Of a stretch of 64,000 nt of DNA, positions 1 to 64,000 are shown one piece after another. The notes beneath the pieces are model-generated. The model was not told the origin of the DNA. It saw only the letters and a program-made list of their open reading frames with translations, and did not search any database. Both the position numbers and the translations under genes were made by a program. The stretch is from a virus. Lineage: Duplodnaviria > Caudoviricetes. The DNA is taken from the IMG/VR virus record IMGVR_UViG_3300026059_000005, positions 3,177-67,176 of that record; one strand, 5' to 3'. Every line of letters begins with the position of its first letter. Positions within the stretch are counted from its first letter, which is position 1.

Positions 1-3000
1 TCAACGCATCTGAGGCCCATTTCCCCACTTGAGGTTTCCACCGGAAAGCGACCTCGCGGTCTTGTTCGTAGATGGCATCCGCCACGGTTTCAAGGGTCGG
101 GAAAACCGTCGGCTCGGCAGGGTCATCAACATACCTCCAGTCGAATCTCTCAGAACCCCATTGGCCGTACTGCTGCAACCCGGTCGACCAGGAGATGGAT
201 TGATACCCGTTTTCGGCGGCCCACCTGACCATCCTCTTGATGGCCAAAAGGGGCCAGGTCTTTTGGAAGGGCGCTTCCGGAACGCTGGGCCCAAGGTTTG
301 TTTCCAGGTGATTTTGGTTGAAACCTAGCTGGGCGGTTTCGAAGTTGGCATTTTTTTCATGCCAAAATTTAAACGCGTTAACACCCTCGAATGCTTCTTC
401 GATACTGCCGAACAAAGATCGGTAATCGCGCATCCCCTCCATCCCAACATGGCGCGGGCGGATCTCGTCCTGCTGCGTCATGCTCGGATTAAAATAGGCA
501 GTTGCGACAAACCCAGGGCCGTCCTGTTCGATTTTCACGATTACGCGCTTGCCGCCGCCCTTGATGGGAACGCTGAACCTTACCTCGTTGGCGGTAAACA
601 TTGTTTTTTTATCGGTTAGCCCATACATGGGATTCCCGTTGTGGAAATATTCAATGACCAAATTTGGAATGCTGCTAAGCCTGGTCGTGACGATTGCGCC
701 TGGCCCCCTGTACCGCGACTTGCGCCCCTTCTGGTGCCAGTCGCTTTGGATCTCTTCGATGAAGAGCCGGGAGCCTCCGTTCAAATCGGGCCGCTCGGTA
801 AGGCGAACATGGACGACGACATTCTCCTCGTCCCAATGGCTGCGAACGAACTTCTCGCCCAGGCGCTCTTCGGTATCCGCGCCGGGGTCTTTCATGTAAT
901 CCTCGGAATCCGCTTTGTTCCCGGTGAAACGGACAACGCCATTCTGGTTAATGACGTCATACATCGGGTGCCCGATGAAATCGGTTTCTTCCTGGTTGAG
1001 CTCGAGGCGCCAGCCGCGGGGGCTCGGCCGCGGAATGATCAGCAGCAGCTCACGATAGCTGACCGGGGTGTTCATCCCCGAATTGATTCCCTGGATATAA
1101 CCAGCGTACTTGGCAGGGTTGTAAACTTCTTTAAGTTGTTCATTGAGAGTATCCGTAACGTCGCCCATGGCGTCTTCGTAAGCGCTATAACGGGTAGACC
1201 ACGTTTTGGCCACGCCGTCTTTTATTTTGGTCACCGCCCAGGATAGCTCGCCGTAATTCAATTTTGGCTCGATCACAAACAGCCCATCCGGAAGGAGCGC
1301 TGAAAACGTGGGGCCCATGCTGTCGGCCAAATCCCATTCAGCCTCTTCGTAGTTTATGATGGCCTCTCCAAAGCGGTTCCGGAGAGCGTCATCGACAGAT
1401 AGTTGCCCCAGGGTGGCGTTTTTTCGGGCCTCTTTTTTTATGAACTCAACGATTGCCATTTGGTCATCGTCGAGAAGCTGGATGATAATATCTGAACCTT
1501 CTCCGATGTTCATGTATTCCAGTATCGGGTTAGATTTCCCCCAATCAATATAGTGGGTGCCGTCATCCTCTGGCGGCTTAATGTCATATTGCCCGTAAAT
1601 TTCCTTGGGAATGCCCACCTGATGAACCGTTTCCACCACGCGGATGTTGCTGTTTGCCAGGTATTCGAGAATATCCTTGGTGGTCATCTTCTTGCTGGGA
1701 TTCAACGCAATGTATTCGCGCAGTCCGGACCAGTCGACCTCTTCCTCCTTGATATCGCCCTTCTTGGCCCAGGCGTTGACCGCTTTCAAAATCTGGTCCA
1801 CCGGGCCCGCCAGCTTGCGCTCTTTGATCACTTCCTCCATCTGCGAATAGAAGGGGCTCGGTCGCACGTTGCGCATGGAAAACAGCGGCATCCCCATTTG
1901 GACCGACCGCAGCTTGATCTCGGGGGTGATGGCGAACGCCGGGACCGTTTCGAATTTTTCTCCGCCCTCAAGAGGATGTAGCAGCTTGAACGCCTCGGGG
2001 TAATCGCGTTCAATTACTTTGTGAATCAATACCCCATTCAGGTTGCGTCCATTTTCGATCGATTTCGCGAACTCTTTTGCCTCTTTCCAGTTTTCTTTGT
2101 AGGCCGCATCATCGGATGGCTTTCGGTTCATGGCCTCAGAGCGGATGGCGTCGGCGATCTCCGCACGCTCTGTCTGGCTGTAGTCCCATTTGACGAATTC
2201 TTTTTCGCCGATCGGAATCCTGAGGGTTCCCACCCGGGCCTTTCCCCAGGCCGGCCGGTCGAAGAAACGATTCATTTCAGCTGGAAGGATCCGTTCATAA
2301 AAGCCGACCATGCCCTCGCCGCCGATGTCCAGGTCCACGCCCTTGAAGCTTTCGTACCCGGCCTCCACGCCCTTGAGTTTTTCCACCGCTTTTTTGGTGA
2401 GCTCCTTGCCGATGACCCCTTCCATCTTTTCTGGAGTAAGGTTGTCAAAAGTCTTGATAGGATTCAGCGTGCCTTTTTCGTAGGCCCGCACTTCATATCG
2501 GCCGCCTTTATCTTTTCGGACCATCACTTCGCTGATCCGCGTGCTCAACTTGTAGCGGTCGGCCTGCATCTTGCCGGTGGTCCAGGCCACCTGGTCATAT
2601 CCGTTTTCAGCCGCGTAGCGGATAATCCTTTTCATCGCCAACATGGCCCAGCTCCCCGTGTCTTGCACAAAGGGGCCGGCCGGAATGCCACGCCCAAGAT
2701 TCTTATTGTTCTCTGCTTGCAGCTCTCTCAAAACCGCTTGAGCTTCAGGTGTTCCGTTGGTGCCCTCATCAACAAACTTAAACCATTGCGCCTGCAAGGC
2801 AGCTTGTTTGACAGGATCGAAACCTTCTTGCTGGAATCCCTCCTTCCGCCCCTTTTGCCCCCAATCGCTTTGAACCTCCTGCAGGAAAAGGACTTTAATC
2901 GGAGGGGTGTATGGCGTGCCGTCAGCGGATGTGTAACGCTCGTCGAAGCGAATGTGAGCCAGAATATCTGGTTCCTGGTAGTGTGTGGAGCGGAAAGACT

Positions 3001-6000
3001 CTCGGTCTACAAGCTGTTTTTTCTGGTTACTGAGCCGATCAAATTCTGCATCATTACCGCTTTTCGCGGCCTCTTTCATTTTTCGCGTTAGCTCTCTTCT
3101 TTCTGCTTCATAGCTCTTTGCCGGCAACAGCAGCAGCAGCTCCCGGTAGCTTCCTTTTTTACCGCCGGGTATATTCAAATCAGGTGCTTTGTCGGGACCG
3201 AAAACGGCTGAACTTTCATCGCGCCTGACGGTATCGGCCACAATCTCGATCAGCCGCAGATCTTCTTGGGGAACCATTTCGAGCTCTGCAAGATTTGACC
3301 GGTAATCGCTCAGCGCGATGAGGGTGGAGCCGTATTTTCTCGGCAACATAATTTCGTTGGGGTAGGGCTCGCCATCCATGTTCTCCGAATATTCGATGGC
3401 GTAGCCGCGGTCCTCGAGCTCACCGATCGCCTCCTGGGCCGCCGCGATGGATTCCTGATCAAAAGATCCTTTGAGCACCTCCTCCACCCGGATGTTGTTT
3501 GTGGCCAGGTAATCGAGCACCTGGCGCTTGGTGACCTTGCCGGTTTGCTCGGCGGCCCAGTTCTCGATTCCGGACCACATCAGCTCGTCGCGGCTGATCT
3601 GTCCAGACCGGACATAGCTTTCCAGCAGGGGCATCAGATCGCCTGCAGGTACGCGCCCGGGCATCTTGTCCGCGATGTGCGCTTCCATCCGCGAATACCA
3701 GACGGGACCAGGGGCCGACTCTGGCCGGCGCATAGACGCCTTGAGGTCGGGGGTTCTGCCGATCGCCTTGAGGGCCTTACCCATTTCGATCGTACCGCGG
3801 CGGGTGAGCTCGGCGAAATCGGTCCCGGTGTGGTAGGAGCCATGGGCGCAGGTCGACTGGCAGGTTTGACAGGCGTCCTTGCTGGCGGAGATCCCGCAGC
3901 AAAGCGAGGAAGGATCTTTGCGCAAATGGCCGGCGAGAACGCTGAAGATCTTTTCCTGGTCGGCAGGCTTGTAGTTCGCCTTGATGTATTCCTCTACCTT
4001 GGTGTAGGGCTCCGACTCGCCGGCCTCGAGGCTCGCCTTTTCCTTTTGGCGCAGGATCCGCCATTCGCCGTCGACCTTGCGTACCGCGATCTGATACTTG
4101 AAGTTAAGCGCGTTGGCCTGGGTGATTGGAGCCCCTTCGATGTCGGACCACATCCCCGGGCGCAGCTTGGCGTGCATCCAGGTCTGGAGCACCTCCGGCA
4201 TCCGGAGGGCGTATTCGGCGATCTCCTTGGGCGTGGCCACCACGACCCTCGGTAGGAACTTCAGCTTGGGATACTTTTTCGCCAGGCCCTTCAGTTGCTC
4301 CCAGCTGTAGCCGTATTTGCGGAACACCTTCCCGTTGAGAACTTTAGCCTCGCGGTGGAATTCCTTCTTGATGGTGTCGGCCGCGCCCTGCAGGTCGCCG
4401 GCGTTGATCTTGTCGATGACCCCCAGGCGCCGGGTGGCGGAGCCCGCAACGTCGTCCACGCCCATGACCTCGACCCAGTAGGGATCGATGGAGGTCTGGA
4501 TCACGGTGTTCGCCGCGAGCGTGCTGCCGATCTTTTTGGATTTGCGGATCCGGTCGATCACCTCCATGGTGGCGTCCTGCTTGGTGATAACCTTGAGCAT
4601 CAGGCCGCGCATTTCGGCGTGCCGGAATATGTCCGCCCATTGGCCAAAGTCCTGGATCTGCGTGTCGCCCATCCCGTTGACGCGCAGGCCGCCGGCAGCG
4701 TTCAGCCGGGCGACGTCGCCGTCCTTCATCTGCAGGATCTCCGCGGTGTACATGGCGGAGTTATAATAGTTCACGATCTGGCCGGCCTGGGCCAGGCCCA
4801 CCACATAGCACCCGTCGATGTAGCAACCATGAAGGCCGACGGTCATCATGGGGCACATCGTGTTCAGGTTGAGGGCGGCCATGGTCTTGTCGGCTTTGCG
4901 CAGGGGCCGGCCGATGGCGTAGTCCTTCTTGCTCGCCATGTTGGCAAACGTGAGCCCCAGCTCGCCTTTCACGGCAATGGCCGGATCGCTGTAGGCCTCC
5001 TCGATGGAGCGCACGATGGCGCGGCGGAACGATTCCGCGGTGTCGGGATCCGTTGAATGCAGGGCATCAAGATAGGTCTGGGCAAAAGACCGGTAGAACC
5101 CCTTGAACCTCGGGACGATGTCGCCCTTCTTGTTGAACTTGCCCTGGCCGGTGTCGACCTTGGTCCTGGCCTCGATGTCGTCTTTGAGGATGTGGCCGTT
5201 TTTGTCCAGGATCCGCACGCCGGCCCGCCGCTCGATCTGGCGGATCTTCTTGACCATGTAGGGATTGGCGTCCAGCTGGGCGTCGATGTTCTGCCAATGC
5301 TGGGGCGGCCTTCCACCGCCGCCCAGGCCCAGGGCCCGGTCAAGCACGGCCAAAGCGTCGAGGTCGTTTCCGATCGCGATGTCTTCGGCGCTCATCATCC
5401 CGCGCTCGAATGCCCGGTTGATATCCCTCCGGCGCAGGCTGAACGTGCCCTTGAGCTCGGAGATCGAGCGCTTCTCGTCGTTCATCTGGAGGATGGCGGC
5501 GCCTGAATTGCTGAACGGAACAATTACCCTGCCAAGCGTGTTCTTTTCCGTAAGCGATTCTCCAGCCTCCAGGACATCCATCACTCGATTTCCCGCGCTT
5601 ATACCGCCGGCCACCCGGCCGATAAATACGCGCATCTCGGGAGATAGCTTGGTTGGAGAAACAAATATCAAACCGTTGGAGTTGGTGATCTCCATCGCCT
5701 TGACGATTTCGGCGAATGCGTCTAGCTGGGTCAAGTGGCTCAAGTTGTTAAGCCACCCCATGACGTTGTTCTGATTGTCCAGCAGCATGATGCCAGCGGT
5801 GTTGGGGTGGTTATCGGCGAGCCATTTTTTCGCATCGTCCGGTTTGGCCAAATGCGCTCCGACTCCGCTGGACGTCGCCGCCAGGAAGCGTTCCTTCACC
5901 GGGATCTTGAGCGTGCGCACGGTCGGACGGATCGACCGCGGTACCTGAAATTCTTTCGAATGCGAGCTGATGTCGACAAATTTGGAGCCCCCGATCACCA

Positions 6001-8611
6001 GCGAATGGACTCGAATGCCCTCGGCAGCCCCCAGGGCCTCAAGCCTTTGCGCCATTCCGATATCCTCGACGCTGGGCTCAACGCCACCAGACGGGTGGTT
6101 GTGGGCGAAGACAACCGCCTTGGTTCCCGGGGTGTTCCCGGCTCGGCCCATAACCTCAACCGGGTCCACATTGGCCGAATTTTTAGTTCCCTTGCTGTAG
6201 CGATGGATCTCAAGCACGGTCCCATCGCCGCCCAGCATGACGACAAACGCATTCTCCTGGGCCGCTTTACGAATCGGAGCCAGCAGGCTCGCAGCGTCAT
6301 CTACGGACAAGACCACATTGCCGGCCGCGGCGATGTGACCGGTGGTCTGTACCTTGACCCGGAAGATCTTTTCGAGGTTGACCCCTGGGACTTCGGGCGG
6401 TTTCAGGTCAAAGAGCGCGAGCTGCTTTTTCCCGGCCCTCTTCTTGACGCTGAATTTCGGCTCGTCCAGCTCGGTGTCGCGGGCGGCGGCGAGGGCCTCC
6501 GCAAGCTTCATCCCCTTCGCGTCCATCTCGTCGGCGTGCCCCTCGGCCGCCATGACCGCCTCATGCAGGAACTGGGCGCGGTAGGCCTGGGTCATCGCTT
6601 GCTCAAGGGCCTCGAGCTCGGGGGCCTGCGTGAGCTTCTTGGCGCGGTCGTTAATGAGGGTGTACAGCCGGCGCATCTCGTCGACTTGCTCGATCGTGGC
6701 AATCCGGCCGAATGCGATCGCATCGTTGCTGCCGATGAACTCCGGGATCCCCAGCTCGGATTCCACATTCATCCGGACGCTGGCGGTGATGTCGGTCTTG
6801 GTGGGGTCGAACGTCCCGATATTTCCGATCGAGGACTTGATCTGCGTAGGCTCAAAGGGCATGAAATGCACGGCCCCTATGACCCCCTGCATCCCAGGAA
6901 GACGCACGCCCATGGCCCCACGACGCGGCCCAAAGTGCCTTTCGGCGTCCATCACGATACCGTCGTAGCCCAGCTCCTTGACGATATCTTTCAGTATCGC
7001 CCCGCTGGAAATCGAATCGCCGGTGTCGGGATCGACAGGATACAGCTCCGCCAGGACTGCCATGATATCGCCGCCGCCGATCTCGGAGCCATCCACCATC
7101 ATTTCGTAAAGCTTGCCGGCAACGTCGTTGATCTCTCTTTCGGAAACTTCATACCAGCCCAACACCTCGCGTAGCGCCTCAATCAGCTTGACGCCCTCGC
7201 CGCGCTCCTCGACGACCTCTTCGCCGTCCTCGGAATACTCTATTTCAATGCCGATGGGCGTGTAGCTCTTGCCCATGCTCTTAACATCGTCCAGGTAGAA
7301 CGGCTTCTCCATTTTCAGGAAGGCAGGATAGATCGCGCCCTCATGCTTGCCGGCGATCGCGTTTTTGGCGGCCATGGAGATGGCCTCATCCAGATACTCA
7401 TCCCGTAGCTTTTCAAATTCCTCGTCGGTATCGAGCAAATCGTTTACGTCAACATCGCCAAGTATCTCGGGGTTCTCCCAGAAATAATCGCTCAGCAGAT
7501 CGCGCGCTTCATCATTTCCGACGTCGCCATACTTTTCTTTTTCAAGCTCGATCCGGCTGGTAAGGTCAGGGCCCATGCCGGCATAGTTGGCGTTCACATC
7601 GTCATAAGAAGAGGAAAAATAGAACCCCTTTCCCATGTAGTTTCCTACATGACCTCGGGTGTCGCTAAAAGACTTAAAGTCGTGGGTGCTGCCATGGAAC
7701 ACGACCATGGGCTTGCCTTTTTTGTCCACGATCTGGGACTTGCCGAACCACTTCTTGAACGCCTTGGTATTGGTATTGACCGATGCCCGCAGGGGGCGGG
7801 CGCGTACCAGGGTGCCCGGAGTGATCTCCGCCCCCGGCCAATTGCGCCGGGCCCGCTCGAGGGCGTGCTCGTAATTCATGCCCTTGATCGCGTCTATCCA
7901 CTCATCGCCCCCGGGGTATTTCACCGTGACGTTGAGCTCCGCCGGGTACCGGGTTTCCTCGAACCCCTTCTGGTCGCCCGGCTTCCCGAATCCCATGAGG
8001 TTGTCAGGGACGTTCGCATAGGGGCGATTGGGATCCCGGGTGAACCGCGGCTTGGGCTCACGGTACATCGACTCGCGCATGGTGAAATCCTTGCGCCGGC
8101 CCTTGTTTTCGACAAACCCGAAATTCTTGTAGAACTTGACCAGGCGCCTCCTGGAGGTGGTCCCGTGGAAATCGTCCTTCGTCGCCGGGGTCAGGTAGAC
8201 GTACTTGCCATCGCGGTCGGCCAGGTTGACGATGTCCCGCATCACGCTCGAGCCGATCCCACGCCGGCGCTCGCCCTTGGGAACGATGAGCGAGAACAAG
8301 GTGATGCCACCCTTCGAGCTCGGGTGCTGGGTTTCCGACAAGGAAATGGTGACCCCCCGGGCCTCCCACTTGTCCTGGATATCCTGAATGGTATTGAGCT
8401 CCGCCGGCGCCGCGGGGGCCTTCTCCCGGACCTGGCCCTCGATGTCCTTGCGCTCGTCCTTCAGCTGCGCGATGTAGTCCTTGACCGCCTCGACGGCGGC
8501 CTTATGAGCTTCGTATCCTTCGGCCCGGTAGTCTTTCACCGCGCCGTTGATGATCGCTTGCTCATGCGCTTCGAGGCCTATCTTGGAAAGGCATTTTTTA
8601 AGGGAGCTCAT
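1..8611 (-). CDS. Giant polyvalent (ejection/internal virion) protein, N-terminal >2870 aa, runs off the left edge. Domains: GNAT, ART, JAB x2, radical-SAM-like, QSDW domain x2
   Basis: Not in the ORF track. ATG at 8611 overlaps the upstream stop (TGATG). Manual translation in the frame with codon starts = 1 mod 3 was open at all segments checked down to base 2. Motifs: ERRRGIGSSVM...LVKFYKNFGF (GNAT); KWFGKSQIVDKKGKPMVVFHGS...GKGFYFS...QIKSSIGNIGTFD (ART); QEN...AHNHPSGGVEPSVED (JAMM); CPMMTVGLHGCYIDGCY; LQEVQSDWGQKGR and IEEIQSDWHQKGR. Confidence 0.9.
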   Translation of the reverse strand, partial: MSSLKKCLSKIGLEAHEQAIINGAVKDYRAEGYEAHKAAVEAVKDYIAQLKDERKDIEGQVREKAPAAPAELNTIQDIQDKWEARGVTISLSETQHPSSKGGITLFSLIVPKGERRRGIGSSVMRDIVNLADRDGKYVYLTPATKDDFHGTTSRRRLVKFYKNFGFVENKGRRKDFTMRESMYREPKPRFTRDPNRPYANVPDNLMGFGKPGDQKGFEETRYPAELNVTVKYPGGDEWIDAIKGMNYEHALERARRNWPGAEITPGTLVRARPLRASVNTNTKAFKKWFGKSQIVDKKGKPMVVFHGSTHDFKSFSDTRGHVGNYMGKGFYFSSSYDDVNANYAGMGPDLTSRIELEKEKYGDVGNDEARDLLSDYFWENPEILGDVDVNDLLDTDEEFEKLRDEYLDEAISMAAKNAIAGKHEGAIYPAFLKMEKPFYLDDVKSMGKSYTPIGIEIEYSEDGEEVVEERGEGVKLIEALREVLGWYEVSEREINDVAGKLYEMMVDGSEIGGGDIMAVLAELYPVDPDTGDSISSGAILKDIVKELGYDGIVMDAERHFGPRRGAMGVRLPGMQGVIGAVHFMPFEPTQIKSSIGNIGTFDPTKTDITASVRMNVESELGIPEFIGSNDAIAFGRIATIEQVDEMRRLYTLINDRAKKLTQAPELEALEQAMTQAYRAQFLHEAVMAAEGHADEMDAKGMKLAEALAAARDTELDEPKFSVKKRAGKKQLALFDLKPPEVPGVNLEKIFRVKVQTTGHIAAAGNVVLSVDDAASLLAPIRKAAQENAFVVMLGGDGTVLEIHRYSKGTKNSANVDPVEVMGRAGNTPGTKAVVFAHNHPSGGVEPSVEDIGMAQRLEALGAAEGIRVHSLVIGGSKFVDISSHSKEFQVPRSIRPTVRTLKIPVKERFLAATSSGVGAHLAKPDDAKKWLADNHPNTAGIMLLDNQNNVMGWLNNLSHLTQLDAFAEIVKAMEITNSNGLIFVSPTKLSPEMRVFIGRVAGGISAGNRVMDVLEAGESLTEKNTLGRVIVPFSNSGAAILQMNDEKRSISELKGTFSLRRRDINRAFERGMMSAEDIAIGNDLDALAVLDRALGLGGGGRPPQHWQNIDAQLDANPYMVKKIRQIERRAGVRILDKNGHILKDDIEARTKVDTGQGKFNKKGDIVPRFKGFYRSFAQTYLDALHSTDPDTAESFRRAIVRSIEEAYSDPAIAVKGELGLTFANMASKKDYAIGRPLRKADKTMAALNLNTMCPMMTVGLHGCYIDGCYVVGLAQAGQIVNYYNSAMYTAEILQMKDGDVARLNAAGGLRVNGMGDTQIQDFGQWADIFRHAEMRGLMLKVITKQDATMEVIDRIRKSKKIGSTLAANTVIQTSIDPYWVEVMGVDDVAGSATRRLGVIDKINAGDLQGAADTIKKEFHREAKVLNGKVFRKYGYSWEQLKGLAKKYPKLKFLPRVVVATPKEIAEYALRMPEVLQTWMHAKLRPGMWSDIEGAPITQANALNFKYQIAVRKVDGEWRILRQKEKASLEAGESEPYTKVEEYIKANYKPADQEKIFSVLAGHLRKDPSSLCCGISASKDACQTCQSTCAHGSYHTGTDFAELTRRGTIEMGKALKAIGRTPDLKASMRRPESAPGPVWYSRMEAHIADKMPGRVPAGDLMPLLESYVRSGQISRDELMWSGIENWAAEQTGKVTKRQVLDYLATNNIRVEEVLKGSFDQESIAAAQEAIGELEDRGYAIEYSENMDGEPYPNEIMLPRKYGSTLIALSDYRSNLAELEMVPQEDLRLIEIVADTVRRDESSAVFGPDKAPDLNIPGGKKGSYRELLLLLPAKSYEAERRELTRKMKEAAKSGNDAEFDRLSNQKKQLVDRESFRSTHYQEPDILAHIRFDERYTSADGTPYTPPIKVLFLQEVQSDWGQKGRKEGFQQEGFDPVKQAALQAQWFKFVDEGTNGTPEAQAVLRELQAENNKNLGRGIPAGPFVQDTGSWAMLAMKRIIRYAAENGYDQVAWTTGKMQADRYKLSTRISEVMVRKDKGGRYEVRAYEKGTLNPIKTFDNLTPEKMEGVIGKELTKKAVEKLKGVEAGYESFKGVDLDIGGEGMVGFYERILPAEMNRFFDRPAWGKARVGTLRIPIGEKEFVKWDYSQTERAEIADAIRSEAMNRKPSDDAAYKENWKEAKEFAKSIENGRNLNGVLIHKVIERDYPEAFKLLHPLEGGEKFETVPAFAITPEIKLRSVQMGMPLFSMRNVRPSPFYSQMEEVIKERKLAGPVDQILKAVNAWAKKGDIKEEEVDWSGLREYIALNPSKKMTTKDILEYLANSNIRVVETVHQVGIPKEIYGQYDIKPPEDDGTHYIDWGKSNPILEYMNIGEGSDIIIQLLDDDQMAIVEFIKKEARKNATLGQLSVDDALRNRFGEAIINYEEAEWDLADSMGPTFSALLPDGLFVIEPKLNYGELSWAVTKIKDGVAKTWSTRYSAYEDAMGDVTDTLNEQLKEVYNPAKYAGYIQGINSGMNTPVSYRELLLIIPRPSPRGWRLELNQEETDFIGHPMYDVINQNGVVRFTGNKADSEDYMKDPGADTEERLGEKFVRSHWDEENVVVHVRLTERPDLNGGSRLFIEEIQSDWHQKGRKSRYRGPGAIVTTRLSSIPNLVIEYFHNGNPMYGLTDKKTMFTANEVRFSVPIKGGGKRVIVKIEQDGPGFVATAYFNPSMTQQDEIRPRHVGMEGMRDYRSLFGSIEEAFEGVNAFKFWHEKNANFETAQLGFNQNHLETNLGPSVPEAPFQKTWPLLAIKRMVRWAAENGYQSISWSTGLQQYGQWGSERFDWRYVDDPAEPTVFPTLETVADAIYEQDREVAFRWKPQVGKWASDAL

Positions 8612-8802
8612 CAGTCCACCACCATTAGGATTATGGTCACAAACTCAAGAATCTCGTTGTCGTCGGTGATGATATCGAACTGCTTGCCGGAGATCTCGTA
8701 TGCCCCGCTGTCCTTGCGCCTCACCGGGACGATGATCACCACCACCGGAGGGAAATAGGTGGGCGCGAAATACGATGCCGGGAAATAGCTTCTGGGAAAC
8801 AT
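8611..8802 (-). CDS. Small hypothetical virion-module protein with (S/T)YF(P/A) repeats
   Basis: ORF track 63 aa, MFPRSYFPASYFAPTYFPP; coupled to both neighbours. Confidence 0.6.
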   Translation of the reverse strand: MFPRSYFPASYFAPTYFPPVVVIIVPVRRKDSGAYEISGKQFDIITDDNEILEFVTIILMVVD

Positions 8803-9410
8803 TATAGGCTAATTGTGACCGTCAGGCGATTTCCATTTGAATCGACCGCGGCCGAAATTAGATCTTTGGTGTCCTCCAGATCCCTGATCTTGACCAGGGA
8901 TGTGCCCGCCCCGGAAAGCTTCCCGGCCAGCGCGGCGCCTATGACCTGCAGCATCTGGGTAGCGGTGATCCCCCCGATAATGACCCGGGACCAGACGGCG
9001 TCGGCGATGTCCTCTTCGATCCCGCTCGGGAGCTCCCCGCCCTCGACGACGATCATGCCGGCGCTGTTGGAAGAGCGAACGGAAACCTGGTTCACGTTGG
9101 CGACGTCCGCGACGTTGTTGTTCGCCCCCACCAGGTTGACGGCATACTGGCCGTCCTCGAAGGTCACCGTGTATCCGTTGATGATCTCAACGACCCGCGC
9201 CAGCGTGAGGCCGCCCAGCTCCACCGTCGTGTTGTGGCGATGGGTGTCCAGGAAGGGCATCCCCTCTTCGGATTCCTCAAGGGCCTTGAGCTCCAGCCGG
9301 AACCAGTCAACATCCATCTCGCGGATCTCTTTCGGGTTCGACTGAATTAAAGTCAGATCCGCTCTCGGGACGTTGATGATCTTGGTTTCCCAATCAACCG
9401 TGATTGCCAT
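8802..9410 (-). CDS. Putative virion structural protein
   Basis: 202 aa, beta-rich composition, operon context among tail genes. Confidence 0.7.
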   Translation of the reverse strand: MAITVDWETKIINVPRADLTLIQSNPKEIREMDVDWFRLELKALEESEEGMPFLDTHRHNTTVELGGLTLARVVEIINGYTVTFEDGQYAVNLVGANNNVADVANVNQVSVRSSNSAGMIVVEGGELPSGIEEDIADAVWSRVIIGGITATQMLQVIGAALAGKLSGAGTSLVKIRDLEDTKDLISAAVDSNGNRLTVTISL

Positions 9411-9663
9411 CAGTCAACCGCCTTATCTCTTCTTTGAGTAGGCTGTTTTCAATCAGGACCGCATTGGACGCGGCATTCGAAGTGTTAAGCGCCTGCTGGA
9501 CGATGCTCTGCTGGATCGCCTTTTCGATGAGCCATTGTTTTTTTTCGGCCTCGAGCATGATGATGATTTGTTTGGCGTTATTGAGCTGGCCCTCGAGCTG
9601 GGTGATCCTCGAGGTGGCCCCCGCGTAAAGCTTCTGGAACTTTTCAAGGTCAGTCATTGTCAT
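9394..9663 (-). CDS. Small coiled-coil protein (possible fibre chaperone)
   Basis: 89 aa with heptad pattern (ITQLEGQLNNAKQIIIMLEAEKK); follows a fibre-like gene. Confidence 0.6.
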   Translation of the reverse strand: MTMTDLEKFQKLYAGATSRITQLEGQLNNAKQIIIMLEAEKKQWLIEKAIQQSIVQQALNTSNAASNAVLIENSLLKEEIRRLTDGNHG

Positions 9664-11510
9664 CCATCAAGCGATAAAATAGCGGTTAAGGTCGTGTCTG
9701 CCGCCGTGGATATCACCCCCGATAAGGGCCCTGTTTTGTAGTATGGCGCGGCGGAAGATTTACGCGCCCAGCCTACCACGTTTTGGTTGGCGCCAATAGC
9801 CCGCGACATGGAAATCTCGCCGCCGGTGTCGGTCAGTCCTTCCAGAAAAACGAACGAACACTTGATCGTCCCGGTGGGGTCGCTGCCAGGCGAGCTCGCC
9901 ATGTCGTAGGTATAGCTGTTGTCGCCGGTTTTTGTGATTGTGAAAACGCCGTTATTGGCGGCCAAGCTTGCTCCGGAAATGACCACCTTGTCGTTGGTCA
10001 GCATCCCGTGGCTGGTGTGAGATACGGTGGCCGTCGTCCCGCTGTTGGTGATGGTGACCGTCGCGTCGTACGGGAATCCGCCGGAGGCCGCCGCCGCGGT
10101 TTTAAGCAACACTCTCGCGCTGCCTATCTTGGTGCCATCGGCAGTTTGCACGACCGCCTTGACCGTGCGTGAGCTCGTTACGATCACGATGGTCGCGCCG
10201 TCGCTTCGGTAGGAGGGCGCCGTGCCTCCAGAAATCGTCAGCGTTACAGTCCCGGATGTCCGCTTGAAATGCAGAGCGGAGTCGTTCACGTTGTTGCTCG
10301 CGCTGAACCCGGTCAGGATGACGTTGGTGAGCGTCATGGATGTTGGGCTGTTTAACCCGAACTCAATGGCGTGATGGGCATTCGCGCCCTTCACAAAAGT
10401 GCATCCGTTCAAATCGGTGTTGGGATCGGTATTGACGTCCCAGACCAGGGCGGAGGTGTCGGCAGCAACCGATGGGGAATCGAAAAGCGTTCCGGCGAAT
10501 TTCGCGTCGTTTGCCGTGATCGTGTTGCATCGGCGGAACACGCTGGCCAGGACGTCGCTCGCCGCCTTGAAGATGAACGTGTCCATGTCCGTGAACGTGC
10601 ATCCTGAAAAATTGACATCGCAATCATCTATGACTTCGAGCGCACCTTTTGAAGCGGTTGTCGAGGGCGATGTGCAAGTGATGTTAATACCCGTCCAATC
10701 GACCCTGGAGGTCGCCTGGCGGATTTCGATCTTGTTGAACGCGGAGGAAACCTTGCGGCACTCCTGAACAAAGATGGCCGCGTTGGAATCGCGGAAGTCC
10801 ACCGCGTTCGAATATCCAAGGGTCATCAACCCCTTCCATTGATACCCACCGGGAACCGCCTGGATCAAGCCCCACCGGGCGCCGATGGCATCGTTTGCAG
10901 CGGCAAACCCGGAAAAGGTCGCGTACCCGTTGGTGCCGTCGCCATACCGTATCCGGGCTTCCCCGCGCCCAAAGCGCACGCCGTCCACCTTGTGCGGCTG
11001 GCCTTTCGACGGCCCGGCGGCGGTCATCAGAATCGCCATGCCAACGTGCTGCAGGGTCGAGGAGGGCGAGCCCTCGGTGTAATCTGGTGTAAGCGTCGGA
11101 TCTATCGCATGGTTGTACCAGCCGCCGGTCGGGTACGGCGGGGCGTTCTTTCCTGAAATCTTCCACGCCTTGAACGCGGCGGTGGAGCTCCCAACGCAGG
11201 CGCGGACTCCGCCATTTTCGATGGTGTCCAACAGGGCGCCGGCGTCGAACTTGTGCCATATAAAAAAAGCCCCGTTGGTCGGAACCGTCACACCGGAACC
11301 ATAGTCGAAAGCGATCGAGCCGACGCCTGACTTTTGCGCGGCGGCAGCGGACGCATGATAGTTCCCCTGAAAGATATCGTCCGTATCGTTGTTGACTGGG
11401 GTGCCGCCAGCGTTGTAGGCAACGGTTGTCCCGGCCAGCTCCTCAACCGTGCCGGTATTTTCGGCCAGGTTGAAAATAGAAAGATCGGTTTCGTAGGCAG
11501 GCGCAGTCAT
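9660..11510 (-). CDS. Tail fibre/spike-like structural protein (beta-helix-like middle, small beta insert near the C-terminus)
   Basis: Start moved to ATG 11510 (MTAPAYETDL), just after the stop of the upstream gene. T/G/S/A-rich; repeats such as VNFSGCTFTD and LNGCTFVK. Confidence 0.75.
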   Translation of the reverse strand: MTAPAYETDLSIFNLAENTGTVEELAGTTVAYNAGGTPVNNDTDDIFQGNYHASAAAAQKSGVGSIAFDYGSGVTVPTNGAFFIWHKFDAGALLDTIENGGVRACVGSSTAAFKAWKISGKNAPPYPTGGWYNHAIDPTLTPDYTEGSPSSTLQHVGMAILMTAAGPSKGQPHKVDGVRFGRGEARIRYGDGTNGYATFSGFAAANDAIGARWGLIQAVPGGYQWKGLMTLGYSNAVDFRDSNAAIFVQECRKVSSAFNKIEIRQATSRVDWTGINITCTSPSTTASKGALEVIDDCDVNFSGCTFTDMDTFIFKAASDVLASVFRRCNTITANDAKFAGTLFDSPSVAADTSALVWDVNTDPNTDLNGCTFVKGANAHHAIEFGLNSPTSMTLTNVILTGFSASNNVNDSALHFKRTSGTVTLTISGGTAPSYRSDGATIVIVTSSRTVKAVVQTADGTKIGSARVLLKTAAAASGGFPYDATVTITNSGTTATVSHTSHGMLTNDKVVISGASLAANNGVFTITKTGDNSYTYDMASSPGSDPTGTIKCSFVFLEGLTDTGGEISMSRAIGANQNVVGWARKSSAAPYYKTGPLSGVISTAADTTLTAILSLDG

Positions 11511-11511
11511 A

Positions 11512-11985
11512 TTATTTCCCGTTAGCCAGCTGTAGATCTTTCGCAGCAGTTCCCAAATCCGCGAGAACATCCCGCTCCGTTCTTCCGACTGGCAAAAGAA
11601 CGTGTTTATTTCGTCCGAATCCGGAACCCACCACCACCGCATTGCCGGCTTTCACCAAGTCGGCAATGAGCCCCCTGGCGGCAGGGCTCCGCCAGGCGTC
11701 AGGGCGTCCGGGATCTTGCAGCGCGAGATAGGTATCGGACTTTGGAAGCTTCTCGAACACTATCTTGCATTTGTCCGGTCGCAACGCCTGGGACAATTCC
11801 CCATGTTGATACCAGTAGCATTCGAAACGCTGGCAGGATGGCGGCCTGGTTTCGTAGATACCGCACCCCTCTCCGATCTGGCAGAACTTGCACCAGACGT
11901 AGACGGGTTTGTCGAGCTCTGGTACCGATGTGAGGCGGCAGCATAAAGTACACGCCCCACACCGGTTGTTCAGATGGGCCACCAT
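11512..11985 (-). CDS. YkgJ-family CxxCxxCC cysteine-cluster (Zn/Fe-S chelating) protein
   Basis: CGACTLCC plus C..C...GCGIYETRPPSCQRFEC, the characteristic pattern of the CxxCxxCC family. Confidence 0.8.
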   Translation of the reverse strand: MVAHLNNRCGACTLCCRLTSVPELDKPVYVWCKFCQIGEGCGIYETRPPSCQRFECYWYQHGELSQALRPDKCKIVFEKLPKSDTYLALQDPGRPDAWRSPAARGLIADLVKAGNAVVVGSGFGRNKHVLLPVGRTERDVLADLGTAAKDLQLANGK

Positions 11986-21592: not shown

Positions 21593-22004
21593 CGGTCAAA
21601 GTCAGAATCCCATTCGCGTGAAACTGGATCACGGACATAAAGCCTTGCGGAGAAACCAGCCGGGTTGGGTCCAAAAGACAAACCAGAGCGTCGCTGGCGT
21701 GGCTGTCATCGTAAACCGCGACATACCTGAAATCAGGCTCCAGCTCCTCCAGCGTTATATCGGCGGCATCAAATTTGGCCGTCACCGTGTCCCTGGTGAT
21801 TTCCACGTTTGTAAGCGCAACTCCGCCGGTTGTGTACCCTCCCCCGGAAACCTCGTCGGACGAAATGTCGGAATAAAACTCGTGGCCGGATTTGCTGGGG
21901 GTGTGCGTAGCTGCCAGCAAAACCAGTTTGAACGTATGAGCCGCATCAATCTCACCGCTCAATATCCTCGGCTTTGCCTTGTCGTAAACGAAGTCGGCCA
22001 TCAA
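21585..22004 (-). CDS. Small tail structural protein
   Basis: FKLVLL...EVSGGGYTTGG.ALT...FDAADIT...YVAVYD is a pattern I recognise as common in phage tail modules. Confidence 0.75.
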   Translation of the reverse strand: MMADFVYDKAKPRILSGEIDAAHTFKLVLLAATHTPSKSGHEFYSDISSDEVSGGGYTTGGVALTNVEITRDTVTAKFDAADITLEELEPDFRYVAVYDDSHASDALVCLLDPTRLVSPQGFMSVIQFHANGILTLTDG

Positions 22005-25000
22005 TCAGTCCTCCACCCGGTAAACCGCGCCTTTGGGCGTTCCCCAGAAAAACCAAGCTGGGGCCGTTGGCCGGTAAAGGTAAGCCGCGGACGCTTCCCC
22101 TCCCACAAAAGAGTTTTTAATCGGGTCAGCGAAAAGATCTCTTTGAACCGTGCCGGGTGAGCCGCGACCTTGAGTTTTGTTTCTCCCACCCAAACGTAAA
22201 CGGTCGCCAGCGTGATAACTTCATCCAGGTAATAGGTGGTTTCGGAATCGACGTTCACGATTTGAATGTCGAGCGACTGAAGAGCTTCCAGGAAATCAGC
22301 GTCGATGTTGGCAATGTCGAGAGAAAAGCTTTGCCATACGTTTGCCGATTCTATGTTGGGCTCGATCCAGGCGTGTTCGATGTCATCGTATTCATAGGAA
22401 ATGATGACCACTCCATCGGCGCCCATCCCACCGCCGGGCCTCACATCGGCCCCACCGCCGCCTCCGCTTCCCGTGTTCTGAACCGCATCCCGGCCCAATG
22501 ATTCAACCGCCATCCCGCCATCACCGCCAAGCTTGCTGCCGCCAGCCCCCAATACCCCTGCTTGTGTGGCCCATGCCCCACCGCCGCCGCCAGCCGCGTA
22601 AAGCGTAGCAATGCCGGTAATCGAGTTGGAAACGCCAGGCCCGCCATCTCCACCGTTGGCGCCGCTTCCATCCGAACCAACACCCCCGGCTCCACCGCCG
22701 CCACCGCCGCCACCGTTTGTGCCGTTGTACCCACCAGCCCCGCCGGCATACCCTTGGTCAGTCGTGCCGGAGCCCCCGGCGCCAGCCGATACCGAACCGG
22801 ACGCCCCGCCGCCGGAGCCGCCATCGCGGCCGGTTTTAAGGGAATCGTCGGACTTGAAACAGCCGCCCCCGCCGCCGCCGATTGCGGTCAAGGTGTCGAA
22901 AACGGAATTCCCGCCGTCTGATCCCTTTTGGTCTTCTTGCCCCGTACCTGGAAGGCCTCCCTTGCCGACCGTGATTGCGTAAGGCTGAGAGGTGACAGTA
23001 TGCCCGGTTGCGTAAATAACCCCACCGCCACCGCCTCCCCCACCGTTTGCGGTCCCGCCGCCGCCCCCGCCGGCCACCACTAAGACATCGACCTCCCCGC
23101 CGTTGGGCGGATAGAAAATACCGTCTTCGGTGAAGGTGAGAACGACCCTGGAGCCGTTGAAAGTCTTCTTGCCACCGATATTCACGGGAAGGCTTACGCG
23201 AAGATTGGCGCCTGTACGGGTAGCCCTTAACTTGAAATTGAAATTGGACCGGCCGGCGATGTCCAGCTTCAAGTCGATGGTCGGGTAGCTGATAATCACG
23301 ATACCGGAGCCTCCGTTACCGGCCCGCATCGCCAGATTGTCAACATTCGCTCCGCCGCCCCCGCCAGTAAAAGGCAACCCGCTATATGGATTTCCGCCTT
23401 GCCCACCGGCTGAACCGCCGCCGCCGATCCCGCCTATTCCGTCCGGGCTAAAATTGTAACCGCCCCCACCCCCGCCGCCGCCGTAGTAAACTTCTTCACC
23501 CGAAATCGAACTTGCGATCCCTGGGCCACCGTCGCCGGCCCAGGTATTAGCCGACGTTTTTCCAGGCCCGCCCGCTCCGCCGCCGCCGCCCGCGTTGTAA
23601 GGGAATACGCCCGATCCGGCCAAGCCTCCGTTGTACCCCTGTCCAGGAGTCCCGGCGCCGCCCGCTTTTGTTTGGCCCCCACCGCCCCCGCTTCCTCCGG
23701 TACGGCCTACCGACGATGACAAGCCACCTCCACCCCCGCCACCCCCGCCGTAGGCATAGGCGATATAAGCCCTGACAAACGTAGCAACCGGCAAATGTTC
23801 TTTATCCCCTGCAATAAAACTTGGCCGGCCATCGGCGCCCTGGGCGCCTTGCGAATTGGAGGCGCCCATGCCTCCCGCACCGACCTGGACAAAGTATTCG
23901 CCGGGATTCAAAATAGTGGAAAGCTGTACGACTCCGCCGGCCCCGCCGCCCCCGCCGGAATAACCGCCCCCGCCGCCGCCGCCGGCCACCACAAGCAAAT
24001 CGGCGTTCAAAGAAATTCCTGGCGGGATTTTAAGCCAATCATCTTGCTTGAAAGTGTGAATGGTGCGACCGTTGGCGGTTGTGATCGTGCCGCCTTCCAC
24101 AAGGAGGTTGCGCGTCAAATTCTCGTCCAGCGTGTCGGTTGTGGCCACCAGCCGTAGCGCGGCGCTTCCTTCATTCACAATCGGAGAAGGGGGTGCATAG
24201 GGGGCGCTGGGCGGCGTGAAGTTTGCGTTCCAACGATAGGTGCCAACCGAAAGGCGGTACTCATCTATGTAGCCGTCAAGATAGTGGGTGCCGTCCCATC
24301 CTTTCCCAATCCACAACGGAGTGGCGTAATCCGGGATGCTGGCGGAGGAAGTATAGTTACTTCCGACTTGAACACCGTCCACAAACCATCGAAACGTACT
24401 CCCATCGCGCGTGTACGCTATGTGATACCATTTATGGGGGGTAAGGTTAATAATGGCATTGTGACCGTTGATGATCCAAGTGTAATTATTTCGGCAGTTG
24501 GCATAAAACTGAAGCACCCCACCAGCCTGGGAATATTTTAAGTTAAAATAGTGACCAGCTGATTCATTCCCCTGGAAATAGAAATATTTGTTATAAAAAT
24601 TGGCCGGGTTGGTGGTCATGCAAAGCCAAAAATCAATGCAAAAGTTATCCGTCCCAAGAACAAAATCGGCTGAGTCTTGGATTTCAATATTGGCGTATGG
24701 GTAAAGATGAAGACTTGATCGACCGAATTTTTTCTTTAAAGTCGAAAGGCGGGCATCGTAAAAAAACTGAACGGTTTGGCCGGTTTCAGCTTTATAAAAC
24801 CCGTCGAGGTGTTCGCCTTCGAAGTGCATTAGGAGCTTGGTGTAACTGTCATCCGGGCCATCAATTCCGCGTTCTACTTTGGGAATATCGTTTGAATAAA
24901 ACGGTTTTGCGGGCGGCCTGAAATTGGTAACGTACCGGGCAATCCCCTTGCTGATTCTCACCTCGTCTATATATCCGGCAAAACCGTTGACCATCCCAAC

Positions 25001-30202: not shown

Positions 30203-31090
30203 TTAAATCAACAACGCGCCGTAGGATTTCGCCTCCGGGTGGAAAAACAGCTCCTCGTAATCTTGGTCCTCTTCAGGCCCGGCGTGTTCGCGGAACGCGG
30301 AAATCAGCATATCCTTGTAAGCGTCGAGCTCGTCCCTCTTGGGCTTTTCCTTGCTGATGGGGTTGAGCTTGGCGAAGATGGTCGCGCGCGGCGCGATCAG
30401 GTGGTGCGCCCACTCCGGGATTTCGGGTACCAGCCCGTAGAAGTCGCCGTCGGTCGGCTCAAATCCGGTGGCGAAGGTGACCACTCGGTTGGCGGCATAG
30501 TCGGTGATCAGCGTGTCCCATTCGGCCGTGATGTTCTCCAGCAGCATCCCGTTATAGAAATCAACGGTGGTCTTGGAGTCCTTGGGATCCAGGTGGTAGA
30601 CGGCCGGAGTGGGCGGCTCTACAATCTCAGCCGTGACAGCGAACCGGCCCTGGTGGATGTCCCGCGGCTTCTTCTTGTAGACCAGGCCGTAGGTGCCGGT
30701 GTCGGAGAGATGATCGATCACCAGGGTGCTGCCGCGTTTGTAATACACATACGCGTGCCCCTGGTCGGCCGTGCGCCGGCGCTGGACCTCTTCGATGGAA
30801 TTGACCTTGATCCCGTCAGAATTCCGCAGGAGCACCAGCTTGGAAAAATCAGAAGGCAAGGTGATCACCGAATTGACGGCGGTCAGGCTTGCCTCTGTCG
30901 TGAACGCATCCGGCCGGCGCTTGGCGATCAGCGCGTAGAGCTCGCGGATGGCGATGTTTATTTGGGCGATTAAGAACTGATTCTTATAGGCGCCGATGAC
31001 GTCGTCGCCGCTGGCCAGGGCGTCGTCGTATTCGTTTACGCCGTACCTGACCTCCTTGACCAACTCAAAACAGTTCTTGTGGTTTGACAT
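30203..31090 (-). CDS. Head-tail adaptor (tail tubular A / gp4-like)
   Basis: 295 aa; LIAQINIAIRELY...ITLPSDFSKL...IPEWAHHLI pattern of podovirus adaptors. Confidence 0.7.
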   Translation of the reverse strand: MSNHKNCFELVKEVRYGVNEYDDALASGDDVIGAYKNQFLIAQINIAIRELYALIAKRRPDAFTTEASLTAVNSVITLPSDFSKLVLLRNSDGIKVNSIEEVQRRRTADQGHAYVYYKRGSTLVIDHLSDTGTYGLVYKKKPRDIHQGRFAVTAEIVEPPTPAVYHLDPKDSKTTVDFYNGMLLENITAEWDTLITDYAANRVVTFATGFEPTDGDFYGLVPEIPEWAHHLIAPRATIFAKLNPISKEKPKRDELDAYKDMLISAFREHAGPEEDQDYEELFFHPEAKSYGALLI

Positions 31091-42007: not shown

Positions 42008-42185
42008 CGAGCGCCTCCTTGACGATCTTGTCGACCTCCGCCTTGGCCTGATACTGGACGTCGTGCTTCCAGGCCTGATCCACCGTTTTCATAATCGATT
42101 CCGCCAGGTCGACGGCATCATCAACCGTGAGCGTATGCAGGACGTTTTCAATCTGGATGCAGATGCGGTAGTTCTCCTTACTCAT
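42000..42185 (-). CDS. Small hypothetical protein
   Basis: Likely start ATG 42185 (MSKENYRI), overlapping the terL end. Confidence 0.55.
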   Translation of the reverse strand: MSKENYRICIQIENVLHTLTVDDAVDLAESIMKTVDQAWKHDVQYQAKAEVDKIVKEALDG

Positions 42186-63146: not shown

Positions 63147-64000
63147 CTACTTCAGTAGTTTGATGCCTTCCCTAAGGGTCATGCCGGTATCCTCTTCCTC
63201 CGGCGGCTCCTGATTGATCATGGCCTTGGCCGCCTCGCGGGTTTCGCCGCGGTACGTCCGGTTGTACCACTCCTCGGCCAGCTGCAAGCGGTAGAGCTCC
63301 TCCTCGCTCAAGGTTTCCTTGAACTTGGCCTGATCCTTTTTGGCGAGCTGTCCCAGGGGGTGGGCCCGCTTGATGGCGCCGATCTCCGCCTTCTCCGTTC
63401 CGCCCAGGTCGCGGTACCGCTGCAGGTATTTGGCCGCGGCCTTGATGTCGCCAAACTTCAAGGCCTGCTTGTAATAGTACATGGCATCGGCCTTGTCCTT
63501 TGGATCCGGCCCGGCGTCCTGTTTGTAATCGGACACGATCCGCGTCACATCGTAATAGGCCATCTCCCCGGGGTCCGATGTGTAGGTCAGCAGGCCCGCC
63601 AGGTCGTTAAATATTTGTTTGTAGATGTCGTCGCCACGCTTGGGGCGGCCGGCCGCCCAGTTGTAAACGCTTCCCAGGCTGAAAGTGCGTGCAATGTATT
63701 CAACCCGGTCCCGGATTGTCCGCGGATGGAACGGATCCGGGTAGAACGATTTGCCGCTCAAGAGCTCGGCAAATGCCTTGACGTCAGGCCTGACTGCGCC
63801 GATGACCTTCTTGGGGGTGGCCAGCAGCATATCTTTGGCCTGGTCGCTGATCGACTTCTTGCCGGCGATCATCTTGGTGACATCGGCCACCGCGGTTTCC
63901 AGGCCGAACCAGGAGAGCGCATCGGAGAACGCCCCCTGCAGGCGCATGGTGATGATGCTGCCATCCTCGCGCCGGCCAAGTATCAGATGCATCTGATACT
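63147..64000 (-). CDS. C-terminal part of a large polyvalent/ejection protein (runs in from the right edge)
   Basis: Frame is open from the window edge (xYQMHLILGRREDG...GAFSDALSWFGL...PDPFHPRTIRDR..YIA..FSL). This resembles the helical C-terminal (LPD38-like) region of large polyvalent proteins. Confidence 0.75.
   Translation of the reverse strand, partial: YQMHLILGRREDGSIITMRLQGAFSDALSWFGLETAVADVTKMIAGKKSISDQAKDMLLATPKKVIGAVRPDVKAFAELLSGKSFYPDPFHPRTIRDRVEYIARTFSLGSVYNWAAGRPKRGDDIYKQIFNDLAGLLTYTSDPGEMAYYDVTRIVSDYKQDAGPDPKDKADAMYYYKQALKFGDIKAAAKYLQRYRDLGGTEKAEIGAIKRAHPLGQLAKKDQAKFKETLSEEELYRLQLAEEWYNRTYRGETREAAKAMINQEPPEEEDTGMTLREGIKLLK

Follow-up and report, generated by a model that had tools for sequence, protein, structure and literature searches.

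A 4,175-residue polyvalent protein of an uncultured phage, with a radical-SAM-like domain and a duplicated GNAT-fold module between constant ends

Which enzymes does the giant open reading frame (ORF) at the edge of this phage DNA join in one chain, and where would they act? The DNA that we analysed, here called the window, is a stretch of 64,000 nucleotides corresponding to bases 3177–67176 of the 67,176-bp IMG/VR record IMGVR_UViG_3300026059_000005. An earlier note, made from the letters of the window, had described a minus-strand frame that runs from an ATG at 8611 to the edge without an in-frame stop, and had read it as a large polyvalent protein of more than 2,870 residues combining GNAT, ART, JAB, degenerate JAB, radical-SAM-like and two QSDW segments. 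We find that the complete frame encodes 4,175 residues and that the product belongs to a published class of phage proteins. It is probably (we put the chance at roughly 0.6) a virion-borne protein of this phage-type polyvalent class, with constant ends around its cargo, that is packaged and delivered to the next host. Positions are window coordinates unless marked as contig positions, and residues are numbered on the full product (Table 1).

A 12.5-kb frame and its recognisable enzymes

The ORF listing bears out the open frame, which spans 2..8611 on the minus strand (2,870 residues), starts with the ATG at 8611 and is open at the window edge. With the missing upstream bases added, it stays open through contig bases 1–3176 and reaches 3,929 residues. 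Contig bases 1–108 are identical to 67064–67171, with the last five bases unmatched. This 108-bp terminal repeat indicates a genome of about 67,063 bp that is either closed into a circle or circularly permuted; the record, although labelled linear, is probably complete. After circularization, the giant ORF crosses the repeat and ends at a stop at window position 63147, as one frame of 12.5 kb. The frame thus does run past the edge, as the earlier note had stated, but its size had been understated.

The start codon is credible, because the ATG at 8611 shares bases with the stop codon of a 63-residue ORF (TGATG) and because the same gene chain recurs elsewhere: the start of the 63-residue ORF overlaps in turn the stop of a 202-residue ORF (TAATG), and the order 202, 66–70, giant is common to the orthologous contigs L003 and L005. 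The 63-residue product has a Tyr/Phe/Pro-rich start and a hydrophobic run, PPVVVIIVPV, and its equivalents in L003 and L005 are 66–70 residues long; a role as small partner of the giant protein, or as its chaperone, is possible. As the contig is metagenomic and the ORF is closed only across the contig ends, the frame might be an assembly chimera or open by chance. We regard this as extremely improbable, because two colinear orthologues exist in other metagenomes at the same genomic place: P0004 (4,491 residues), which was assembled in two independent samples, is colinear with the giant protein over the whole length at 44–68% identity, and P0005 (4,290 residues) is colinear from the JAB domain onward. 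Conserved homologues, moreover, exist for every segment of the giant protein.

The approximate domain positions given in the earlier note match the results of the search tools for all seven segments. Two of the enzymes pass Pfam cut-offs. ART-PolyVal (PF18760) was matched with an E value of 1.1e-16 (62.3 bits against a cut-off of 31.2) in two stretches split by the insertion of about 200 residues, and its catalytic residues are kept in 79 of 81 (H306) and 19 of 19 (D550) relatives; the conservation filter picked out these two but not the middle Tyr. The RadC-like JAB domain (PF04002) was matched with an E value of 2.4e-17 (63.4 bits against a cut-off of 22.1), and NCBIfam RadC (E 1.7e-16) was the sole match in the NCBIfam scan of the giant protein. 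Its metal site, E...HxH...S...D, is intact, with E786, H837, H839, S847 and D850 each present in all 11 relatives. The GNAT domain, in contrast, stays below the Pfam cut-offs, both for Acetyltransf_7 (PF13508; E 0.0023, 18.7 bits against 27) and for Acetyltransf_1 (PF00583; E 0.0093, 16.7 bits against 20.7), and is recognised by phrog_10691 and by motif A (R115-x-x-G118-x-G120) and motif B (F160, Y161, F164 and F166), which are invariant in six relatives. The presence of GNAT, ART and JAB in one chain, as the earlier note had it, is upheld.

The JAB domain had also been read as a deconjugating enzyme. RadC-type JAB domains have been argued to lack the groove into which ubiquitin's tail fits and to have, probably, nucleic acids or nucleotides as their targets (Iyer 2017, PMC5512222), so deconjugation is not the interpretation that we favour. 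The segment that follows, here called JAB*, is a possible degenerate copy. It has no BLASTP match to the JAB domain, and a profile of three JAB* sequences aligned with the JAB profile in hhalign in register but weakly (probability 12.9%, pairwise E 0.002). An Atlas feature search with JAB* placed RadC clusters at ranks 2 and 3 (0.86 and 0.85, with 179 and 174 shared features). On these sequence comparisons, a dead RadC-like duplicate is plausible and is the interpretation that we somewhat favour. The helical linker that precedes the JAB domain had no family match in Pfam, PHROG or NCBIfam, and is conserved in P0004 and P0005 only.

Phage-type large polyvalent proteins were described by Iyer, Burroughs, Anand, de Souza and Aravind (2017, J Bacteriol, PMC5512222); features of the class are 2–15 conflict-type domains per polypeptide, hallmark domains, a late or structural gene setting and proposed delivery with DNA. 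The giant protein has at least seven modules in its 4,175 residues, carries PF18760 as a hallmark and is encoded by the last gene after a series of structural genes, so the earlier note was right to call it a large polyvalent protein. Its suggestion of an undescribed system was overstated, given that the class, the ART-PolyVal family and the pairing of GNAT with ART were all published in 2017; the GNAT family there 'typically has the ART domain as a neighbor', and such proteins were proposed to travel with the DNA (PMC5512222). About 180 proteins of 1.6–5 thousand residues share modules with the giant protein. Most carry PF18760 and LPD, InPase or MuF_C families, some carry lysozyme or SLT domains (PF00959, PF01464), as ejected proteins do, and the RadC/JAB family is recorded in about ten of the giants homologous to this protein; RadC domains are not confined to the polyvalent proteins of conjugative elements. 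On contig L005, a second large protein of at least 1,337 residues (L005:1–3415), encoded further upstream in the operon of P0005, also has ART-PolyVal, and phages of this kind may encode more than one polyvalent protein.

Two modules without a described family

The domain that follows JAB* contains two groups of cysteines, and the earlier note had called it radical-SAM-like. The giant protein has nine cysteines in total, of which three form a triad and five a distal cluster at residues 1571–1588. An exhaustive HMMER search of 1.84 billion representatives identified 125 relatives of this domain (clusters at 50% identity), nearly all inside proteins of 2,000–5,900 residues. The triad is kept almost throughout (C1253 in 114 of 115 relatives, 99%; C1263 in 115 of 118, 97%; C1268 in 105 of 117, 90%), and each of the distal cysteines is kept in 51–53 of the 53–54 relatives covering that part. 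Other near-invariant motifs of the domain are K-T, Y-x-G-E-x-L, N-x-x-G-G-L-R, G-D and K-x-I-T-K. The spacing of the triad is CX9CX4C in 52 relatives, CX8CX2C in 42 and CX9CX2C in three. In the CX8CX2C relatives an aromatic residue precedes the last cysteine, so that the canonical radical SAM motif ends as usual behind a lengthened first spacer. Variant cysteine spacings are known in the radical SAM superfamily, for example in QueE, Elp3 and HmdB.

An AlphaFold2 model of the domain from 27 sequences (predicted local distance difference test 81.3, predicted template modelling score 0.85) has the form of a partial (beta/alpha) barrel. The most confident Foldseek matches of this model were PFL-activase and viperin (probability 0.82–0.85, E 0.02–0.04), and the top 29 and top 40 matches of two structure comparisons were all radical SAM enzymes. 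Since the top structural matches are tied within one Z unit, none of them points to a function. The predicted fold and the conserved cysteines thus back the label that the earlier note had given.

It is conceivable that this is instead a TIM-barrel-like domain outside the radical SAM enzymes, whose cysteines would hold structural zinc or a redox-inert cluster. The giant protein lacks the canonical CX3CX2C motif, has no match to Pfam Radical_SAM (PF04055) and has an alanine at the GGE-like position, where 92% of relatives have glycine, all of which would suit such a domain. This alternative is nevertheless unlikely in our view, because it would have to account for structure comparisons that return radical SAM enzymes exclusively, for three near-invariant cysteines in one loop with a canonical C-x-aromatic-C end in relatives, and for a second conserved cysteine cluster similar to the auxiliary clusters that many radical SAM enzymes have. 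Radical_SAM is also the Pfam family most often matched among the relatives (4 of 27, weakly, with a best E value of 0.0056). We therefore continue to treat the domain as radical-SAM-like.

No Pfam or NCBIfam model covers this domain, and its distant relatives are likewise without a Pfam match there. GP88 (PF17338) and DUF1848 (PF08902), which were considered as possible homes for it, had no match in the genome at E ≤ 10. Neither the domain profile nor residues 871–1625 matched any sequence of a solved structure. Our literature search found no paper on a radical SAM module in polyvalent proteins, and the text of Iyer 2017 (PMC5512222) mentions no radical SAM, iron–sulfur or cysteine-cluster domain. 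The replication block of contig L005 (24751–27060) contains a DUF5131 gene and a neighbour with a faint Radical_SAM match, which would give that phage two distinct radical-SAM-type systems.

The remaining part of the cargo consists of two copies of the QSDW module. Copy 1 is the most widely shared piece of the giant protein, present in about 100 of 120 other giants, and QSDW also occurs as stand-alone phage proteins of 500–800 residues without a Pfam family. In an alignment of 66 QSDW sequences, the E, Q, S and D of the E-x-Q-S-D-W motif and seven other residues are invariant. The second copy that the earlier note had proposed is a true internal duplication: it escapes self-BLAST but is recovered by the hidden Markov model (HMM) of the family in three pieces separated by insertions (residues 2246–2646, 2708–2819 and 3023–3206), and it keeps the motif at residues 2620–2625. 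The QSDW core has the alpha/beta fold of GNAT enzymes in its predicted structure, a fold that the earlier note had not given for it. Because no Pfam GNAT family matches any of the 66 members, this assignment is a purely structural one. The tandem (double) GNAT arrangement of Eis, FemX and NMT, which were among the top Foldseek matches, was rejected for QSDW, as VIA aligns only one GNAT domain's worth. The QSDW profile had no match among the sequences of solved structures, and the BFVD matches of the module were confined to giants from uncultured phages, all of them uncharacterised.

The adjoining positions of the two modules recall the dyad of radical SAM and GNAT/KAT domains in Elp3, but we rejected this parallel because the modules rarely adjoin in relatives: among 96 giants with the radical-SAM-like domain and room downstream, QSDW was found anywhere in 13 and adjoining in four. 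A bolder proposal is that the two modules represent undescribed enzyme families that are delivered with the genome, one of radical SAM enzymes (CX8-9CX2-4C with a five-cysteine auxiliary cluster) and one of acyltransferases. We advance it only tentatively and think it would more probably fail than hold. The radical SAM family would then comprise at least 125 clusters at 50% identity and be found almost only as cargo of giant phage proteins. If this were true, phages would bring radical chemistry at infection, possibly viperin-like nucleotide chemistry or a chemistry of nucleic acids, and the duplicated QSDW would be a new acyltransferase family used likewise at infection.

Constant ends, gene position and proposed delivery

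The layout of the chain, whose conserved ends the earlier note had not mentioned, is a constant leader, a variable cargo and a constant C-terminal module. The leader of about 65 residues is found at the extreme N terminus of six other giants with different cargo (P0004, P0005, P0221, P0013, P0251 and P0318; phmmer E values from 4e-32 to 4e-3). The C-terminal module comprises residues 3101–4175 (about 1,075 residues), most of which are encoded in contig bases 1–3176, outside the window. It has 96 relatives, with E values down to 2e-282, that are always C-terminal in proteins of 600–1,850 residues and are preceded by varying N-terminal parts (ART, InPase, lysozyme, methyltransferase or QSDW); the stand-alone protein P0216 begins exactly at the border of the module. 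The module has no Pfam family and no solved relative by sequence. The constant ends may serve incorporation into the particle, exit with the DNA, or both. An Atlas feature score of 0.97 to LPD38 clusters raised the possibility that the C-terminal module is LPD38 (PF18857), which we rejected, as none of 26 members matches that family and hhalign put the probability below 1%. LPD38 is the C-terminal domain that phage polyvalent proteins usually have; it always lies at the extreme C terminus of giants that share the same cargo modules, and we treat the two as positional analogues only. On contig L006 (3001–12662), a separate 947-residue LPD38 gene comes after the gene for a 2,261-residue giant that contains the radical-SAM-like module; the C-terminal carrier module can be split off as a gene of its own.

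The phage is an uncultured, podovirus-like phage of about 67 kb, and the giant gene is the final gene of its late (structural) operon. The late block, all on one strand, includes the large terminase (TerL), a P22-like portal, the major head protein, an SU10-type adaptor, a 1,764-residue fibre and then the giant gene; an 802-residue protein is encoded between the adaptor and the fibre, and eight ORFs without a family lie between the fibre and the giant gene. Past the stop of the giant gene, a divergent replication block includes a UvrD-type helicase. Contigs L003 and L005 have the same layout, with the late block, the giant gene as its last member and the divergent replication block. In two more distant relatives, a giant with the same cysteine-cluster module follows a weak T7_gp14-like gene and a gene for a protein of about 700 residues, and thus occupies the position of the T7 internal virion protein gp16; T7_gp14 had no match in the genome studied here.

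On this arrangement, and by analogy with the Dar proteins of P1 and the N4 vRNAP, we propose that the giant protein would be made late, packaged and delivered with the genome into the next host, where its modules would modify host proteins or nucleic acids and nucleotides before phage genes are expressed. In the predicted cargo, a GNAT of the RimI type would come first, then an ADP-ribosyltransferase of the H-Y-D type. Next would be a RadC-type JAB metal hydrolase that looks active, together with its probably dead copy. In the radical-SAM-like domain after it, a CX9CX4C site would hold the catalytic [4Fe-4S] cluster and five further cysteines would form a second cluster, and two copies of the GNAT-fold QSDW module complete the cargo. 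Short motifs of the form [FA]-S-[VLM]-[RK] at the module borders may mark cut sites at which the enzymes are separated. The activities, the processing and the targets of the modules are predictions, as are packaging and co-injection.

Several observations weigh against this proposal. The presence of the giant protein in virions is suggested by gene position, and the ORFs just 5′ of it resemble tail or fibre proteins and are not proven ejection proteins. No hydrophobic, membrane-type segment was found in the giant protein, and neither of its ends resembles T7 gp14 or gp16, N4 vRNAP or any solved chain by sequence. The phage has no cultured relative, and a tblastn search with the C-terminal module against 50,697 deposited phage genomes gave no match. 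The border motif is not enriched over 259 giants (147 observed against 153 expected), which led us to reject it as a trait of polyvalent proteins in general, and a search of the genome for a prohead protease that could cut it (S78, S77 or ClpP type) found none. Finally, a [4Fe-4S] enzyme is oxygen-labile, and unfolding for passage through the tail would probably cost it its clusters, so that the delivery of a 'ready-made' radical enzyme, as the earlier note had imagined it, is doubtful.

The difficulty of retaining Fe–S clusters leaves room for another explanation, in which the giant protein is a late cytoplasmic enzyme polyprotein that is not packaged and acts in the producing cell, where it would modify, for example, the DNA of the phage, parts of the virion or the machinery of the host late in infection; that its gene lies in the late operon would then be a matter of timing only. 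Fe–S and radical SAM chemistry would suit a reducing cytoplasm better than storage in a particle, and the missing membrane-type segments and the missing sequence or profile link to known ejection proteins would be expected. Constant ends around freely swapped cargo are, however, hard to explain for a soluble enzyme. Among relatives, both the gp16 position and peptidoglycan hydrolase domains are found, and the polyvalent proteins that have been characterised so far are carried in virions, as is the case for the P1 Dar proteins and for N4 vRNAP (PMC5512222; PMC13434306). We judge action in the producing cell to be quite unlikely and prefer packaging and delivery.

The giant protein contains six copies of [FA]-S-[VLM]-[RK], against 1.5 expected, and each lies at a module border; P0004, P0005 and P0313 have 7–9 copies at aligned borders despite about 45–50% identity, and the stand-alone P0216 starts directly after the last motif. 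Iyer 2017 (PMC5512222) proposed that the modules of polyvalent proteins are released by autoproteolysis. The giant protein might be a true polyprotein whose modules are cut apart at these motifs and act separately; its own JAB domain, or else a protease of the host or of the phage, would do the cutting, which is compatible with packaging before or after it. Yet the zincin MPTase, the peptidase proposed for release, is not present in the giant protein, P0313 has the motif and no detected JAB domain, and the 'PLF' portion of the motif simply coincides with the end of the QSDW fold that is conserved in stand-alone proteins, so that it may mark a structural seam. The lack of a prohead protease and of enrichment across giants tells against cutting as well. 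A true polyprotein is possible but rather doubtful, and the motif, which is specific to a clade, may be either a cleavage code or a seam.

In a cell that has just been infected, polyvalent proteins are thought to act before any other phage molecule, yet hardly any have been studied experimentally. The giant protein adds to them a radical-SAM-type Fe–S module that recurs in more than 100 clusters of giant phage proteins without a family entry, and a GNAT fold for QSDW, the most widespread unannotated module, which suggests a testable chemistry, acyl transfer. The layout with constant ends suggests a route by which cargo is loaded and could help in the search for such carriers in metagenomes. 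Should the radical enzyme be delivered and active, the question would arise of how an oxygen-sensitive cofactor survives the virion and the passage through the tail.

Other features of the locus touch these questions less directly. A 660-residue protein encoded at 9660–11642 on the minus strand looks like a beta-helix tailspike or fibre, with repetitive Gly/Asn/Thr-rich strands, and it has a single match, to phrog_9998, whose function is unknown (E 1.3e-6). Identity between the head protein and those of actinobacterial phages is only about 25%. A megablast search with the giant region against deposited phages and plasmids gave no match, tblastn with the QSDW half against deposited genomes gave two weak phage matches, and a search for related loci that started from one QSDW sequence gave no viral contig. 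No tRNA genes were detected in the window, and its G+C content is 50–64%, with lower values at 24–26 kb and 60–62 kb.

Table 1. Features of the giant protein and of the surrounding late block (window coordinates; residue numbers of the 4,175-residue product)
Feature	Position	Strand	Residues	Basis or remark
N-terminal leader, helical	8402..8611	-	1-70	no family
GNAT acetyltransferase domain	8012..8389	-	75-200	phrog_10691 (E 6.8e-28), motifs A and B
ART-PolyVal ADP-ribosyltransferase	6767..7789	-	275-615	PF18760; insertion of ~200 residues
Helical linker	6335..6766	-	616-759	no family; border motifs at residues 610 and 720
RadC-like JAB domain	5957..6334	-	760-885	PF04002; active-site motif intact
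JAB*, possible degenerate second RadC-like domain	5432..5956	-	886-1060	lacks the His pair
Radical-SAM-like Fe-S domain (predicted)	3737..5299	-	~1105-1625	predicted fold and conserved Cys
Cys triad, putative SAM-cluster ligands	4808..4855	-	C1253-x9-C1263-x4-C1268	
Distal Cys cluster, putative auxiliary cluster	3848..3901	-	C1571, C1572, C1581, C1584, C1588	CC-x8-C-x2-C-x3-C
QSDW copy 1	1871..3721	-	1631-2247	small N-terminal domain and predicted GNAT-fold core with large insertions
QSDW copy 2	2..1861	-	2251-2870 in the window	continues to residue ~3100 in upstream contig bases
End of C-terminal module	63147..63887	-	last 246 codons and stop	reached across the 108-bp terminal repeat
Two coupled ORFs 5′ of the giant gene	8611..9410	-		202 residues at 8802-9410, 63 residues at 8611-8802; overlapping stop and start codons
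1,764-residue fibre	22001-27295	-		three Laminin_G_3, two Gly_rich_2 and a discoidin-like domain (lectin-type)
SU10-type adaptor	30203-31090	-		late block
Major head protein	32946-34265	-		late block
P22-like portal	35245-37527	-		late block
Large terminase	42178-43644	-		late block

Comparison with known systems

The radical-SAM-like domain resembles the radical SAM superfamily in its predicted partial barrel, its loop with three cysteines, its second cysteine cluster and a G-E-x-L motif after the next strand, and the closest solved folds are viperin and viperin-like enzymes, spore photoproduct lyase and PFL-activase. It differs in its spacing, CX9CX4C (CX8CX2C in relatives) and not CX3CX2C, in lying below Pfam detection and in its place inside giant phage proteins. 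For QSDW, the closest solved GNAT folds are the acetyl-CoA-binding C-terminal domain of M. tuberculosis ICL2, the tRNA-acetylating toxins AtaT, TacT and KacT, NatD and the KAT domain of Elp3. Unlike these acyltransferases, the QSDW core extends over about 530 residues with very large insertions, and in place of a recognisable Q/R-x-x-G-x-G/A motif it has its own invariant E-x-Q-S-D-W.

As a whole, the giant protein shares with the class of Iyer 2017 the combination of many conflict-type enzyme domains in one chain that is encoded with late or structural genes. It departs from the class in having RadC in a phage protein, in lacking a zincin MPTase or MuF domain, and in that no Pfam family covers QSDW, the C-terminal module or the leader; one of these three might equal an LPD of Iyer 2017 that never entered Pfam. 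N4 vRNAP (about 3,500 residues) and T7 gp16 are similar in size class and late-operon position. N4 vRNAP also has a large helical C-terminal domain of unknown fold (PMC13434306), and the similarity to T7 gp16 extends to the relatives of the giant protein that sit after T7_gp14-like and approximately 700-residue genes. Unlike these proteins, the giant protein has no RNA polymerase and no sequence similarity to any solved chain. Together, these comparisons identify what is new here: two modules without a described family, the non-canonical radical-SAM-like Fe–S domain and the duplicated GNAT-fold QSDW, and a leader of about 65 residues and a C-terminal module of about 1,075 residues as constant ends around variable cargo.

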